64,000 nt of DNA from an uncultured Actinomycetes bacterium (GTDB lineage Bacteria; Actinomycetota; Thermoleophilia; UBA2241), in assembly GCA_963725665.1 (NCBI GenBank), contig CAVRZA010000004.1:128001-192000 (forward strand). The letters are read 5' to 3'. The notes below the pieces were generated by a model. It did not search any database. It was given only the letters and a program-made list of their open reading frames with translations, and was not told where the DNA came from. The position numbers and the translations under genes are program-made. Shown here in pieces: positions 53,639 through 64,000 of the stretch (positions are counted from its first letter, which is position 1; every line of letters starts with the position of its first letter).

Positions 53639-53969
53639 GCCTCTATTATGAGCGCGTCCAGCCTCACTGTCGTCGTTCTACGGGCGCTTCGGACGCTGCG
53701 CTGCTGTAGACGCCGTTTCGCAACGGACGCTGCCCTACCGCAACCGCCGTTCCACCGCAAACTTCGCACCGTGGACGGTGCTTGAACTCTGGCGCCTCTC
53801 CGACGCCGGCGCCTGTCCGACGCTGGCACCTCTCCGACGCGGCGCGTCTCGCGCCCGCCGACGCTGTTCAGCGTGGGTGCCCTTTTAGCCCGGACGTTGT
53901 TCGACACAGGCCGGGGCGAGGGTAGAAACAGGATAGATTTACTCCGTTTTCAGTCGAAACGAGGTACAC

Positions 53970-54821
53970 ATGGCGGGAGTCAACGGCGCTAGAGCATTCC
54001 AGCTCTCGCCAGCAGCGCGTCTCCTCGACGCGCCCCGGTTCGAGGTCATACCGGTCGGCGGGGTAGAGGAACGAGTGTCCGTGCTCGTGCCCGGCACGAC
54101 CGTGACCGTCACTTGCTCGCAGCGGCACGGCGTCGATCGGACGCTCGAGGTCAGCGAACATCTCGCCCGTCGTGGTTACCGTGTCGTGCCTCACCTGGCG
54201 GCTCGCCTGGTGCGTGACCGCGACCATCTCGAGCAGATCGTCGCGCGACTTGAGGCTGCCGGCATAGGTGAGGCATTCGTCGTCGGCGGCGATGCCTCGA
54301 CCCCGGCCGGCAGCTATCGCGACGCGGGCGATCTGCTCGAGGCGCTCGACTCTCTCGCGGACTCTCCCGCGGTGGTCGGCGTGGCGGGATACCCGGAGGG
54401 GCATCCGTTCATCAGCGAGGCGCGGCTACTCGATGCCCTGCGGCGCGCGCAGCCGCACGCCGACCACGTCGTGACTCAGATCTGCTTCGAGGCGGATGCC
54501 CTCGTCCGCTGGATCCACCGCATCCGGCAGGCGGGGATAACGCTGCCCGTCATCGTGGGTCTGCCCGGCGTCGTCGAGCGCCGCAAGCTCGCCGAGATAT
54601 CACTGCAGGCCGGCGTCGGTCCCTCGCTGCGCTACGTCGCGAGGCACGGTCGGCAGCTCGCGTCGCTGGCGCGCTCGCGGCGCTACGATCCGACTCCCTT
54701 GACGCGCGCGATCGCGGCCCATATCGACGATCCGGGGCTGGGCATAGGAGGCGTGCACCTGTTCACCTTCAACCAGGTCGAGACGACGCAGGCCTGGCTG
54801 GCGCGCACAGGGTCGCCATAG
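53970..54821 (+). CDS. metF: 5,10-methylenetetrahydrofolate reductase
   Basis: VPHLAAR, FVVGGD, AGYPEGHP, VTQICF, HLFTFNQ. Confidence 0.88.
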   Translation: MAGVNGARAFQLSPAARLLDAPRFEVIPVGGVEERVSVLVPGTTVTVTCSQRHGVDRTLEVSEHLARRGYRVVPHLAARLVRDRDHLEQIVARLEAAGIGEAFVVGGDASTPAGSYRDAGDLLEALDSLADSPAVVGVAGYPEGHPFISEARLLDALRRAQPHADHVVTQICFEADALVRWIHRIRQAGITLPVIVGLPGVVERRKLAEISLQAGVGPSLRYVARHGRQLASLARSRRYDPTPLTRAIAAHIDDPGLGIGGVHLFTFNQVETTQAWLARTGSP

Positions 54822-58940: not shown

Positions 58941-59888
58941 GTGAAGACGACCGTCTTCTTCGCCACGGACGTGCACGGGTCGGAGGTCTGCTGGCGCAAG
59001 TTCGTGAACTCCGCCAAGCACTACGAGGCCGACGTGCTCATCCTCGGCGGCGACATGACCGGCAAGGCCATCGTGCCCATCACCGCCGACGGGGCCGGTC
59101 ACTATCACTTCTCCATGCAGGACCAGCGGCACGAGGTCGAGGGTGACGAGGAGCTCGCGCAAGCCCAGAGGCTGATCCAGGACCACGGCTACTACCCCGT
59201 GCCCATGACGCGCGAGGAGTTGCAGGACTACACGGACCACCCGGAGCACCTCGACGACGTCTTCCGGCGGGAGATGCTGCGCACGGTCGAGCGCTGGATG
59301 GCCTTCGCCGACGAGCGCCTCACCGGCAGCGACATCCTGTGCATCGTCTGCCCCGGCAACGACGACAGCCACGAGATCGACCCCATCATCGACGCCACGA
59401 CGTCGATCACGGTGGGCGAGGGCAATGTGCTCGATCTCCCGGGCGGCTATCAGCTCGTCTCGAGCGGCTACACGAACCCCACGCCCTGGGACACCCACCG
59501 CGAGGAGGACGAGCCGGCGCTCAAGGCGCGCATCGAGGCTATCGTCAATCAGGCATCGGTCGGCCCGGAGCGCCTTGTCCTGGGTCTCCACGCGCCGCCC
59601 TACGACACCGTGCTCGACATCGCCCCGAAGATCGACTGGGAGTCGCTTACGGTGCAGGGACAGGACACGGCGCACGTGGGCTCGACGGCCGTGAGGGAGG
59701 TGATCGATGAGGTCCAGCCGGTGCTCTCCCTGCACGGCCACATCCACGAGAGCCGTGCGGCCATCCGCATGGGGCGCACCCTGGCGGTCAATCCCGGCAG
59801 CACCTACGTGGAGGGCACGTTGTCGGGCTGCCTGCTGCAGCTCGACGGCAAGGACAAGATCAAGCAGTACAGGCTGGTTTCTGGGTGA
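58941..59888 (+). CDS. Metallophosphoesterase (calcineurin-like, Icc-related)
   Basis: TDVHGS, GGDMTGK, PGNDD, HAPPY, LHGHIHES, NPGS. Confidence 0.9.
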   Translation: MKTTVFFATDVHGSEVCWRKFVNSAKHYEADVLILGGDMTGKAIVPITADGAGHYHFSMQDQRHEVEGDEELAQAQRLIQDHGYYPVPMTREELQDYTDHPEHLDDVFRREMLRTVERWMAFADERLTGSDILCIVCPGNDDSHEIDPIIDATTSITVGEGNVLDLPGGYQLVSSGYTNPTPWDTHREEDEPALKARIEAIVNQASVGPERLVLGLHAPPYDTVLDIAPKIDWESLTVQGQDTAHVGSTAVREVIDEVQPVLSLHGHIHESRAAIRMGRTLAVNPGSTYVEGTLSGCLLQLDGKDKIKQYRLVSG

Positions 59889-59963
59889 GGACACCCGGAT
59901 CGGCGAGCTGACGGGGGCGGCCGATCGATGGTCGTCCACCGACTGTGATAGGAGGGGGAGCGA

Positions 59964-61605
59964 ATGGCAGACACGACAGCAGGCGCACCGATGGAGAAGA
60001 CGCTGTTCGTGCGCAAAGCGAGCGGCCTTGTCAAGGGCTGGTCGACGACAGACGGATTCAGGTACTCGTTCTTCTCCACCAACATCTTCCTCGGGATCTT
60101 CGGCTTCACCTACGCCGTCTTCATCCCCGGCGGCAGCCTCTTCTGGGCCGTCGTCATCACGACGGCCCTCGTGCTGCTCGAGGTCGTCGTGTACGCGGGG
60201 CTGATCTCGGCGATGCCACGTGCCGGCGGCGACTACGTGTGGCAGACGCGCGTGTTCCACAGCTCGGTCGGCTTCGTCCTTGGTGCGACCGGCTGGTGGT
60301 TCATCCTCTGGCTGTGGATCCCCCTGTACGCGGCGCTCTGCGTCAACCAGTTCATCATCCCGCTGCTAAGGATCGTGGGCTGGGGCAGCGCCGCCGACTG
60401 GCTGTTCACCAGCAACGGCATCTTCGTGGCGTCGCTGGCGACGATCGCCCTGGCGACCTACCTGGTCGCCATCGGCATGAAGTCCTACGCGACCTTCCAG
60501 AAGTGGGCCCTGTGGATCGGCTTGGCCGGCATGCTCGTGGGCGGCATCCTCCTGCTGGTCAACTCGAAGGCGAATTTCATCGCCGCCTTCAACCGCGAGA
60601 ACCTTCAGCTATACGGGGTCACAGGCGCGTACGGGAAGACGCTCGCCGCCGGCGGCGAGGGCATGCCCACGTCGATGTTCTCCGGTGCGGCGTGGGACAC
60701 GCTGAAGCTGATGCCCTTCATGCTGTTCTGGCTGCTTGTGGCCGAACTGGGGCGCTACCCTCTACGGCGAGGTCCGCGGCGCCAAGGACTTCCGCAAGAA
60801 CCTCTACCAGATGGGCGGCGGTCTCCTGGCGGCGGCTGCCATCGGACTTGTCTTCCTGGCGCTGGTCAGCAAGACGATGGGCTTCAAGTTCTTCATGGCC
60901 GGCAACAACGGCTACGAGGGCGTCATCTACGGCTACATCCCCGCGACGCCGCAGGGGGGCGAGTACCTCTCACCTACGGCGATGACGGCCTGGCTCGTCA
61001 ACAACTCGGCCTTCCAGGTCATCCTCATCGCGGCCATCTCCCTCCTTGTGTTCGGGTGGTGGGGGACGGTGTTCCTCTCGTCGACGCGCATGATCTTCGC
61101 GTCGGCCTTCGACCGCATCCTGCCGGAGCGGGCGGCGGCGGTCACAAAGGGCGGCGTGCCCTACGTGGCGCTGCTGCTCATGGCCATCCCGTCGGTCATC
61201 GTCTCGGCCTTCTACGCCTACGCGGACTGGTTCATCAAGCTCACCTACGACGCGACCCTGGTGATCGCCATCATGTTCCTCGGGTCCGGCCTCGCGTTCA
61301 TGATCATGCCGTGGCGCACCAAGGCTATCTGGGTGGCCTCAGCCCTGCCCAAGGCCAAGATCGCAGGCATCCCGGTGATGGCGATCGCCGCGGCCGGCTA
61401 CTCCGCGTTCCTCGCCTTCAACCTCTACCTGTGGTTCTACGATCCGACCAACACGTACGGCGTCGGCTACAAGAACAGCAACTCACTCATCTTCATGGCG
61501 ATCCTGTACGTCAGCGCGATCGTCATCTGGGTGGTCGCCTGGGTGGTGCGCAAACGCCAGGGCATGGCGCTCGAGGCGGTGGCGAAGGAGATCCCAGTCG
61601 AGTAA
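59964..61605 (+). CDS. APC family amine/amino acid permease with a +1 frameshift near 60735 (about 546 aa if corrected)
   Basis: LFVRKASGLV, MPRAGGDYVW, then LWPNWGATLYGEVRG, RMIFASAFDRILP and EIPVE* in the second frame. Confidence 0.8.
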
Positions 61606-61699
61606 CTGAGACGGACTGGGGCCGCAGCGCCCCTCTGATCGTTGTGCGGGCGGCGGCTCGGCTGGTACAGCCGAGCCGCCGCCACGAGAAGGAGGTTGC

Positions 61700-63106
61700 A
61701 TGAAGATACTGACGAGGCTGGGCGACAACTCCAACGTCGAGCTGACGCGGGAGGAGTTGCGCAAGGAGCTCGAGGAGGGCACGCAGGCCGCGGCGACCAA
61801 GGCCAAGATCGCCCCGCTCACCGAGAACGAGCTCGACTACCTCGAGGAGATGTTCGTCTGTCCCAGCCGCATCTGGGGCGTCGAGCGCGGCCACGAGGTG
61901 GTCATGACCAAGGACGGCTGCGTCAACGCGCTCAACTCGTCGCGCATGTCGAGCGGCGTCGCGGCGCCCGTCAACCGCGAGGTGGGGGTGCGCCTCTTCG
62001 AGTCGATGCTGGGCTTCGACTCGATGGAAGTCTCGCACAACGACTACTCGGTCAAGCCGCAGCGCTTCCTCAAGGCGCTCGAGCAGGTGCATATGGAGCT
62101 CCTGCAGGAGACGACGATCTTTCCCCTGCTCTACGGCTTCATGCCGAACTTGGGCCTCTACTACCGGCCCGACGGCTCCTTCCCCAACCCCTCCGACCTG
62201 CTGCCGATGGGCAAGATCGACGAGGCTCGGCAGACGCAGGAAGAGGCCCTCGAGGCTTGCCAGGCGGACTGCATCGAGATGAGCGACTGCATGCTCGAGA
62301 TGGGTGCCGACGGCATCGACTACGACACCGTGGCGTCGACCGGCGACGCGGAGTTCCTGGCGGTGCTGCGCACGACCGAGCATGTGGCGAACGAGACGGG
62401 GCTGCCGGTCGAGATCGGCATGTCGGCCGAGATGGTGCTCGGCTTCCACGGCCAGCTCGAGTACGACGGCGTGCGCCTGGCCGGCCTGTGGCCGCACCAG
62501 CAGGTGCAGCTCTGCGAGAAGGCCGGCTGCACGATCTTCGGCCCGGTCGTCAACACCAACACGAGGAAGACCATCCCCTGGAACCTGTCGCGGGCCGTCA
62601 CCTTCGTCAAGGCCTGCACCGACATCGCCAAGATCCCCGTGCACGCCAACTGCGGCATGGGCGTCGGCGGCGTGGCCATGTTCGAAACGCCCGCCGTCGA
62701 CGTCGTGACGCGCGCCGGCGCGGCCATGGTCGAGATCGGCCGCGTCGACGGGTTGTAGGTGGGCACGGGCGACCCGGCCGGGATGCACACGGCGCATCTG
62801 TTGGCCTCGTCGATGGGTGGCATCAGGGCTGCCGGAGATCTGGTGGCGAGGATGCAGCTCAGCAAGAAGATGAGGATCGACGATGCCAAGCGGTACGTGG
62901 CCGACAAGCTCCATGTGAGCCCGCTCGACCTCTCCGACCCGACGGTGATGAGGCTCCTGCGCGAGGAGCTCGACATCGGCGTGGTCACGGCCGTCCCCGG
63001 CATCGCCAAGGGCATGGCGGCCAAGGTGCGCATCGCCGAGCTGCTCGACATCGAGATCAACTCGGTCGAGCAGTTCAAGAAGAAGACGGGCCTGCGCAGC
63101 GTGTAG
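61700..63106 (+). CDS. mtbB: Dimethylamine:corrinoid methyltransferase with in-frame amber codon (pyrrolysine, residue 353), 468 aa
   Basis: [99 protein letters not shown]; AAGGAGG RBS. Confidence 0.92.
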
Positions 63107-63124
63107 ACCGCAAGTGCGGCGAGA

Positions 63125-63272
63125 CGTCGGCGCCCCTGCCGGGGCGCAAGCGCCGTTAGGCGAATGCAGAACGCGCGAGCGTGGGCGCGCGGGGTCGGGC
63201 TGCGGCGAGCGTCGGCGCCCCTTCCGCGGTGCACGCCGCCAGCCGAGTGCAGTTAGGCGAATGCAGAACGCG
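63125..63272. repeat. Two degenerate direct repeats sharing the exact 21-mer GTTAGGCGAATGCAGAACGCG
   Basis: 21-mer at 63155-63175 and 63252-63272; CGTCGGCGCCCCT at 63125 and 63210. Confidence 0.8.
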
Positions 63273-63273
63273 G

Positions 63274-63306
63274 GAGGGGCCGGGCCGTACGGCGGCCCGG
63301 CCCCTC
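63274..63306. terminator. 14-bp hairpin between convergent mtbB and tkt
   Basis: GAGGGGCCGGGCCG-TACGG-CGGCCCGGCCCCTC. Confidence 0.7.
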
Positions 63307-63334
63307 GCGCGGAATCGGCCTCGTGTGCCGGCTA

Positions 63335-64000
63335 TCAGCCGCCAACGGGAGCCGTCTGCGCCTTGCTCAGCAGAGCCTTGGCGCGCTGGTAGACGTTCTC
63401 GGCGGTGAAGCCGAGCTGCTCGAAGATCGTGCCGCCCGGCGCCGAGGCGCCGAAGCGGTCGAGGGTGATGAGCTCGCCCTCGTCACCGATCCAGCGGTGC
63501 CAGCCTAGGCTCGCTGCGGCCTCGACGGCGAGGCGGCGCCGGCAGGACGCGGGCAGGACGCTCTCGCGGTAAGCCTCGTCCTGGCGTGCGAACAGTGTGA
63601 ACGAGACCATGTTGACGAGGCGCGAGCGCACGCCCTCGGCCGCGAGTCGCTCGTGGGCGGCGAGAGCGTGCTGTACCTCGCTGCCGCTGGCGATGAGGAT
63701 GATGTCCGGTGTGCCTGCGCCGTCGGCGTCGGCGAGCACGTAGGCGCCGCGCGCCAAGCCGCTCGCCGGGGCGTAGACCGCGCGGTCGATGATGGGCAGG
63801 TTCTGCCGCGTCAGCATGAGCCCCGTGGGACCGTCGTTGCGCAGGGCGATCTTCCAGGCCTCTACCGTCTCGTTCGCGTCCGCGGGGCGGATGTCGGTGA
63901 AGCCGGGAGTCGCACGCATCATGGCGAGATGCTCGATCGGCTGGTGGGTGGGTCCGTCCTCGCCGAGGCCTACGCTGTCGTGCGTGAGCACGTAGACGAG
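63335..64000 (-). CDS. tkt: Transketolase, C-terminal part (5' end outside window)
   Basis: THDSVGLGEDGPTHQPIEHL, RPADANET, ASGSEV, AVEAA, RFGASAP. Confidence 0.95.
   Translation of the reverse strand, partial: LVYVLTHDSVGLGEDGPTHQPIEHLAMMRATPGFTDIRPADANETVEAWKIALRNDGPTGLMLTRQNLPIIDRAVYAPASGLARGAYVLADADGAGTPDIILIASGSEVQHALAAHERLAAEGVRSRLVNMVSFTLFARQDEAYRESVLPASCRRRLAVEAAASLGWHRWIGDEGELITLDRFGASAPGGTIFEQLGFTAENVYQRAKALLSKAQTAPVGG

Follow-up and report, generated by a model that had tools for sequence, protein, structure and literature searches.

Introduction

Pyrrolysine (Pyl) is textbook knowledge for methanogens and is also known from some Firmicutes and Deltaproteobacteria. The dimethylamine methyltransferase MtbB of Methanosarcina is about 467 amino acids (aa) long and carries Pyl near residue 356; the length is consistent with that of the NCBIfam equivalog model TIGR02368 (466 positions). 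Here we describe a gene of this family, mtbB, in a 64,000-nucleotide stretch of DNA (the window) of an uncultured Actinomycetes bacterium placed in the Thermoleophilia (UBA2241; assembly GCA_963725665.1, contig CAVRZA010000004.1, positions 128,001 to 192,000). We consider it very probable that positions 61700-63106 of the window form one intact gene for a Pyl-containing MtbB-family protein, whose internal UAG would be decoded by a Pyl-tRNA with the anticodon CUA, and this is the best explanation of the locus that we found.

The gene resembles the mtbB genes of Methanosarcina and of Pyl-using Firmicutes in its single in-frame UAG at the Pyl position within the motif DGL-O-VGxGDP (O, Pyl), in the length of about 467 aa and in the adjacent gene for a putative permease. 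It differs from them in its host, an actinobacterium with a GC content of 68%, and in sequence, the nearest non-actinobacterial copies that we found being 47-49% identical. Also unlike these systems, the copy in the window has no adjacent gene for a corrinoid protein or an MT2 protein. Compared with the Methanosarcina enzyme, the methyl group would presumably be passed on to tetrahydrofolate and not to coenzyme M, because the bacterial host has an acetyl-CoA synthase domain.

According to the accessible text of a survey of pyrrolysyl-tRNA synthetases (PylRS), all bacterial PylRS are split into PylSn and PylSc, and PylRS occurs in two Actinobacteria among 81 bacterial genomes (PMC9630628); the text that we could consult of a second paper repeats the count of two Actinobacteria (PMC11764691). 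Split systems such as those of Desulfitobacterium and Acetohalobium, as far as that survey describes them, share with our genome the separate genes for PylSn and PylSc. In both, pylB, pylC and pylD are grouped with pylT, and UAG is still a normal stop codon.

A close published case comes from Stordalen Mire, where Actinobacteriota metagenome-assembled genomes (MAGs; genera Bog-752 and RBG-16-64-13) are reported, in the sections available to us, to express Pyl-encoding mttB and mtbB (PMC10805028). These belong to the same gene family and the same phylum as the mtbB of the window, and a MAG with the isolate name bog_752 carries an orthologue with 87% identity. In that study the Pyl genes came to light through their truncation at the amber codon, and the portion of the text seen by us gives no account of pylTSBCD, of the number of Pyl genes per genome, of stop codon usage or of the distribution in the lineage. 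Pyl-encoding mtbB in Actinobacteriota is thus already published, if only briefly; relative to the published text that we could consult, our additions are the full set of Pyl genes, the extent of the pyrroproteome, the two uses of UAG and the spread of the trait through the family. A literature search, which largely did not reach subscription journals, turned up no dedicated study of Pyl in Thermoleophilia, and supplements of published work may name the lineage.

Results

A single in-frame TAG at the pyrrolysine position of mtbB

The mtbB gene (window 61700-63106, plus strand) comprises 468 codons, and its sole interruption is a TAG at 62756-62758, which divides the product into 352 + 1 + 115 residues and places the predicted Pyl at residue 353. 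The frame is kept across the TAG, as the GTG at 62759 is in phase with the start (62759 - 61700 = 1059 = 3 x 353). A Shine-Dalgarno-like AAGGAGG, read from the sequence, lies at 61689-61695 on the same strand, 4 nt upstream of the ATG at 61700, and the terminal stop is at 63104-63106, with the next in-frame stop 49 codons further on. The initial annotation had described two open reading frames (ORFs) in one frame separated only by this TAG, and its coordinates and its joined product of 468 aa proved accurate; the peptide that it named for mass spectrometry is present in the read-through translation.

The joined product matched the Pfam family PF09505 (Dimeth_Pyl) with 621 bits over residues 5-462 (cut-off 25) and TIGR02368 with 523.6 bits (cut-off 369.1), the same residues aligning to positions 7-465 of the latter model. 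MtbB motifs had been claimed for both sides of the TAG, and each fragment indeed matched PF09505 separately, the N-terminal one at positions 5-353 of 463 (429.5 bits) and the C-terminal one at positions 355-463 (169.4 bits). Since the fragments end at 353 and resume at 355, the TAG corresponds to position 354, the single position of the profile that neither fragment covers. The GC content at third codon positions (GC3) is 0.94 both upstream and downstream of the TAG. As had been anticipated for standard annotation, the 352-aa N-terminal part is listed, with precisely these limits, as a protein of its own in public collections; the 90% cluster of this fragment has 107 members, and all 15 members listed are 346-352 aa long.

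Scanning a single genome of each species with a sequence pattern yielded 64 related loci. These loci and the genome's own copies gave 63 full-length homologues, which were translated and aligned with MAFFT; 15 partial tblastn pieces were left out (from L033, L066, L068, L069, L070, L073, L080-L082 and the genome's own frameshifted copy at C2:503969). Exactly one internal stop, always TAG, was found in 63 of 63 homologues, in every case in alignment column 353 and within the motif DGL-TAG-VGxGDP. When the set-aside pieces that cover this column were included, TAG was present in 71 of 71 copies, among them four loci of Bacillota (Syntrophomonadaceae) with 47-49% identity. In four of five comparisons, conservation past the TAG equals or exceeds that before it (for instance 57% versus 48% identity in a Bacillota copy and 84% versus 74% in L064). 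The terminal stops of the 63 homologues vary (45 TGA, 9 TAG and 9 TAA). Such a pattern lies far outside chance, and a fixed TAG with 115 codons under this constraint after it is not the mark of a pseudogene.

The TAG is also the starting point of a match to the Rfam family PYLIS_2 (described below), of which it occupies positions 1-3. The profile position, the Rfam match and the comparative data are three independent lines, and they identify the TAG at 62756-62758 as the predicted Pyl codon; its alignment with the Pyl column, which the initial annotation had left to be checked, is thereby borne out.

An AlphaFold2 model of the mtbB product, built on an alignment of 20 sequences, is a beta/alpha barrel (pLDDT 82.5, pTM 0.87) in which strands and helices alternate and residue 353 is modeled inside the strand 351-354. 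Foldseek searches with this model returned generic (beta/alpha)8 barrels only, such as HisF and the betaine-homocysteine methyltransferase BHMT, with TMq values of at most 0.39. The model is therefore consistent with a TIM-barrel methyltransferase and suggests no closer functional analogy.

The genome encodes the complete pyrrolysine machinery

The genome (G000) is a 3.73-Mb assembly of 12 contigs with 68% GC and 97.5% completeness, in which the window is C4:128001-192000. The initial annotation had proposed a search for pylT, the split synthetase genes and the biosynthesis genes, and all of them were detected on contig C6. The protein genes all exceeded their curated cut-offs: pylSc (296347-297081, plus strand, 314.6 bits), pylSn (298938-299198, minus strand, 119.9 bits), and, all on the minus strand, pylB (345979-347001, 448.3 bits), pylC (344775-345908, 338.7 bits) and pylD (343844-344635, 211.6 bits). 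ARAGORN placed tRNA-Pyl (CUA), pylT, at 343702-343774 on the minus strand, as the sole CUA tRNA among 52 tRNAs. It folds into a cloverleaf in which a single base separates the acceptor stem from the D stem; the D loop has 5 nt, the anticodon stem is long, and the GCCA end is encoded. These features are the hallmarks of tRNA-Pyl.

The separate genes pylSc and pylSn stand on either side of a corrinoid-protein gene and a radical-SAM gene, and the other genes follow the order pylB-pylC-pylD-pylT. From the end of pylSc (297081) to the start of pylT (343702) the distance is 46.6 kb, and the pyl genes do not form a single contiguous cluster in this genome. Both this separation of pylSc and pylSn from pylBCD-pylT and the last place of the tRNA in the order set the genome apart from bacterial split-PylRS cassettes. 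The distance between pylSc and pylT is only 1.4-5.2 kb in six relatives (G008, G134, G161, G191, G291 and G326).

The 3' half of pylT recurs as a 35-nt stretch with 94% identity on the same strand, 1.2 kb beyond pylT (C6:342470-342504; L096:3470-3504). Elements that insert into tRNA genes leave partial tRNA copies of this type behind, and such an element might account for both this copy and the 46.6-kb separation; the search beside pylT gave neither an integrase nor a mobile element, with MOFRL fragments and an enolase as the only Pfam matches. ARAGORN additionally reported a tRNA-SeC (anticodon UCA) at C11:550041-550138, from which we conclude that the organism probably also uses selenocysteine.

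UAG is still used as a stop codon

We examined stop codon usage with a crude ORF filter and no gene caller (at least 120 codons, GC3 of at least 0.8 and GC1 greater than GC2 + 0.08). The resulting 2429 long high-GC3 ORFs end in TAG in 930 cases (about 38%), in TGA in 1370 and in TAA in 129. Release factor 1 (RF1) is present (489.9 bits, cut-off 423.25). Past the terminal TAGs the coding signal is lost, with GC1/2/3 values of 0.70/0.70/0.72 downstream versus 0.71/0.51/0.885 upstream, and the same is seen after TGA. UAG is read in two ways in this genome and is not reassigned.

With RF1 present and about 38% of the stops being TAG, the decoding of codon 353 would be a competition between Pyl-tRNA and RF1. 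Prat and colleagues reportedly described regulated pyl expression in 2012 as a bacterial solution to the competition at UAG. By analogy, pyl expression may be regulated in this organism as well.

Fifteen methyltransferase genes of the genome carry a TAG

The mtbB of the window is one of eight mtbB genes in the genome, each with one TAG. Additionally, six of the 31 matches to the MTTB superfamily and one mtmB gene contain one TAG, which brings the TAG-bearing methyltransferase genes to 15, spread over contigs C1, C2, C3 and C4. A PYLIS-type Rfam match starts at the TAG in 14 of the 15 genes and exceeds the gathering score in 13. All eight mtbB genes are above the gathering score of PYLIS_2, the seven copies besides that of the window with 60.7-89.3 bits, and five of the six TAG-bearing mttB genes are above that of PYLIS_3; mtmB reached 57.8 bits against PYLIS_1, under the gathering score of 70.

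The only TAG-bearing MTTB-family match of the six without PYLIS_3 is C1:36714-38156 (L112); its TAG may lie off the Pyl position, or the gene may have decayed. Two full-length MtmB homologues have no in-frame stop (C11:266044-267399, 298 bits, and C4:197079-198440, 226.7 bits). Each of them adjoins a corrinoid-protein gene (C11:265315 and C4:198936), and they are non-Pyl relatives of monomethylamine methyltransferase. One mtbB paralogue (C2:503975-505331) carries, besides the TAG, a frameshift at profile position 402/403, which may be either genuine or an artifact of the assembly.

A tree of MtbB was calculated from 29 of the 63 aligned sequences. It comprised all seven own copies of the genome and all four from Bacillota, and the remaining 52 were sampled by taking every third one. 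The copy of the window falls into a clade with 100/100 support together with the orthologues of 18 Actinomycetota MAGs, its nearest neighbors being L019, L025, L022 (isolate bog_752) and L049. Three own paralogues lie outside this clade, and three own paralogues from a cluster on contig C2 lie on the Bacillota side of the midpoint. This cluster comprises four divergent TAG-bearing mtbB genes within 20 kb (C2:493945-513908; L097 and L098). Its neighbors are not methylamine genes; they encode alanine dehydrogenase, adenosine deaminase, a DAO-type FAD oxidoreductase, a HAD hydrolase and ABC solute-binding proteins. The divergent paralogues of this cluster may act on other substrates.

A conserved RNA hairpin downstream of the UAG

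The match to PYLIS_2 (RF02509, 'Pyrrolysine insertion sequence mtbB') covers window positions 62756-62855 on the plus strand with 63.6 bits (gathering score 36, model positions 1-100), and much of this score reflects conservation of the coding sequence. The structure was evaluated on 65 distinct 100-nt segments. Hairpin 2 (GCNGCNGG-AGAU-CUNGUNGC, window 62828-62847, plus strand; model positions 73-92), which lies 72-91 nt past the UAG, is paired in 97.4% of cells. Compensatory changes occur at the pairs 75/90 (CG 32, AU 15, UA 8, GC 3, UG 4) and 78/87 (CG 27, GC 17, UG 14, UA 6), both at third codon positions. The loop codon GGA is invariant (65/65), and GGA accounts for one of the 40 Gly codons of mtbB; the codon that follows is GAT in 57 of the 65 segments, and GAT accounts for two of the 27 Asp codons.

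Because the covariation is at synonymous sites and the rare GGA is invariant, these data point to a constraint on hairpin 2 at the RNA level; the sequences are related and the counts not independent, which makes them supportive and not proof. As in the Rfam family, the element starts at the UAG and hairpin 2 is kept with covariation, whereas hairpin 1, unlike in the Rfam consensus, is largely unpaired in the sequences of this lineage. The role of PYLIS elements in translation is described as unclear in the accessible text of Theil Have et al. 2013 (PMC3639795).

Candidate partner genes for methyl transfer elsewhere in the genome

The genome contains 13 corrinoid-protein (B12-binding_2) domains, and one of the corrinoid genes is located directly 3' of the mtbB paralogue C3:259391-260764. 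It further contains three URO-D-family genes, two RACo-type activators and the CdhC domain of acetyl-CoA synthase. An anaerobic, acetogen-like fate of the methyl group is plausible. Anaerobic methylamine-based methylotrophy, as proposed in the initial annotation, keeps the standing of a suggestion, drawn from the acetyl-CoA synthase domain, the two RACo-type activators and the 13 corrinoid-protein domains.

Genomic neighborhood of mtbB

Directly upstream of mtbB, at 59964-61605 on the plus strand, lies an APC/amino-acid-permease gene (Pfam AA_permease_2 and AA_permease) that encodes an MtbP-like putative methylamine permease. Its N-terminal part gave weak matches to both families (profile positions 4-166) and its C-terminal part a weak match to AA_permease (266-463). 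A permease beside mtbB is kept in most related loci, and in seven relatives its ORF is unbroken, with a length of about 547 aa. The stretch that separates the permease stop from the ribosome-binding site of mtbB contains a GC-rich hairpin of 14 perfectly matched base pairs and a loop of 5 nt (61650-61682, plus strand), and the region 61606-61699 folds at -56.2 kcal/mol. Five relatives in which permease and mtbB are adjacent have a comparable GC-rich hairpin of other sequence. This hairpin may be an intercistronic terminator or stabilizer.

Further upstream we found a weak metallophosphoesterase match, GNAT and EamA genes, two flavodoxin-like/FMN-reductase genes and, at 53937-54821, an MTHFR-like gene. 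A convergent transketolase gene lies 3' of mtbB. Between the two, a 19-bp inverted repeat without a T tract (63269-63311) is likely to be a terminator hairpin. This repeat is preceded by an imperfect duplication of about 85-97 nt (63125-63179 versus 63210-63276), and no other copy of the duplicated motif was found in the genome. A consensus scan of 59700-63400 gave no sigma-70-like promoter and no T-tract terminator.

The pyrrolysine trait is nearly universal in the family of the host

Of the 64 related loci, 60 come from MAGs labelled Thermoleophilia, Actinomycetes or Actinomycetota (76-90% identity), and the other four are from Bacillota; this supports the actinobacterium-like host recognized in the initial annotation. 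We searched for PylSc in a sample of the class comprising 401 genomes, including that of the window and many incomplete ones, and detected it in 83. In the family of the host it was found in 73 of 79 genomes, in one other family of the class in 9 of 61, and in ten further families in none of 260. A sample of the phylum gave a single match among 400 other genomes, and this match falls in the second Pyl-positive family.

Within the family of the host, mtbB was detected in 78 of 80 genomes and pylT-like DNA in 63 of 80. All 150 mtbB matches listed in this survey carry one TAG, and a further 486 matches lie beyond those listed. Two genomes of the family, G002 and G014 (1.7-1.8 Mb, 98% complete), are without mtbB and without PylSc, which looks like a joint loss of the Pyl trait. 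The distribution fits an old acquisition followed by vertical inheritance in the family. The long residence that had been read from codon usage is accordingly upheld by the native GC3 together with the presence of PylSc in 73 of the 79 sampled family genomes.

Discussion

Taken together, the data are very probably explained by an intact Pyl-containing MtbB-family gene, for which we propose the following mechanism. Pyrrolysine would be made by PylB, PylC and PylD, encoded on contig C6 and not on the contig of mtbB, and the Pyl-tRNA (CUA) would be charged by the split PylRS formed by PylSn and PylSc. The outcome of the competition with RF1 at codon 353 would probably be set by the timing of pyl expression, and the hairpin 72-91 nt 3' of the UAG perhaps helps Pyl decoding. 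The adjacent permease would import dimethylamine, and the enzyme would move a methyl group from it to a corrinoid protein whose gene lies at another genomic site, from where the methyl group may pass to tetrahydrofolate and the Wood-Ljungdahl pathway.

Several observations weigh against this explanation or parts of it. We infer the insertion of Pyl at residue 353 from sequence, and the dimethylamine specificity of the product is a prediction from homology only; a search of the Protein Data Bank (PDB) with the product sequence gave 0 matches, and so no solved MtbB structure with which to compare it. No corrinoid-protein, MT2 or activase gene lies beside the mtbB of the window, and one additional T near 60736 breaks the permease gene into two frames (a frame switch at residue 259 by tblastn and a 1-base insertion by blastn); either a genuine lesion or a fault of the assembly may lie behind this. 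Hairpin 1 of PYLIS_2 (model positions 7-38) is not maintained, with 55.8% of cells paired and five of its 11 pairs unpaired in most of the 65 sequences. Back-up stops are not in excess (a second stop within 10 codons follows 11.7% of TAG and 16.2% of TGA stops), and the genome thus has no visible adaptation to read-through. The mtbB gene itself ends in TAG, so that an active Pyl-tRNA could extend some of the product by 49 residues. Finally, the contamination of the genome is estimated at 5.04%.

That the TAG is a true stop, leaving a decayed gene or separate products of 352 and 115 residues, would agree with the 352-aa public protein and its listed cluster members of 346-352 aa, and with RF1 and the common use of TAG as a stop. 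A nonsense mutation would not be expected to become fixed at a single column, as seen in 71 of 71 copies from two phyla, however, nor are 115 equally conserved codons with a GC3 of 0.94 after it, and the genome has all pyl genes as well as pylT; we therefore regard a true stop as very improbable. Reassignment of UAG to Pyl across the whole genome, with TAG as a plain sense codon, has a precedent in some archaea (Kivenson et al. 2025, as cited in the part of PMC13695967 that we consulted). The 15 TAG-bearing methyltransferase genes and the lack of enriched back-up stops after TAG would suit it, yet RF1 is kept and scores over its cut-off, TAG ends 930 of the 2429 long ORFs, and the coding signal collapses after these TAGs as it does after TGA. 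We rejected genome-wide reassignment on these grounds and see hardly any chance that it applies.

The contamination estimate and the location of the pyl genes on C6, with the window on C4, could also mean that one of the two contigs is a binning contaminant and that gene and machinery belong to different cells. Both contigs are large (654 kb and 578 kb) with the same GC content of 0.68, though, TAG-bearing methyltransferase genes occur on C1, C2, C3 and C4, and pylSc and TAG-bearing mtbB are found together across most of the family's genomes, among them assemblies of 5-10 contigs, all of which makes such a mix-up extremely unlikely. A different question is the substrate: the gene could encode a genuine Pyl-containing MtbB-family enzyme that acts on another secondary or methylated amine and not on dimethylamine. 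The eight MtbB paralogues fall into at least three deep clades, the most divergent ones adjoin genes for alanine dehydrogenase, adenosine deaminase, a DAO-type oxidoreductase and ABC solute-binding proteins, and in the literature we found no biochemistry of a Thermoleophilia MtbB. These odd neighborhoods belong to other paralogues, however, and the copy of the window scores 154 bits over the equivalog cut-off of TIGR02368 and, like most orthologues, directly follows the conserved permease. Another substrate for this copy is thus improbable in our view, and we retain the reading of the window gene as an intact, Pyl-containing dimethylamine methyltransferase homologue.

With much less confidence, we put forward a broader picture as a tentative possibility in which several parts would have to hold jointly. 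The soil and peat Thermoleophilia family of the host would be a large, vertically inherited and undescribed Pyl-decoding lineage whose genomes each carry 15 or more TAG-bearing genes for methyltransferases. UAG would be read as Pyl against RF1 in genomes with more than a third of the genes ending in UAG, the hairpin 72-91 nt 3' of the UAG may act as a recoding aid, and the deep MtbB paralogues may demethylate substrates besides dimethylamine. Novel substrates of the divergent paralogues, or a recoding role of the hairpin, would add weight to the finding.

For annotation, the consequence is that public protein sets carry these Pyl genes as truncated fragments. The genomes also offer PylRS/tRNA pairs of high-GC bacterial origin. 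The Pyl system, together with many TAG-bearing methylamine methyltransferases, is near-universal in the family of the host, which is common among MAGs from soil, bog and permafrost. These bacteria would compete with methylotrophic methanogens for methylamines, which bears on carbon and nitrogen cycling.

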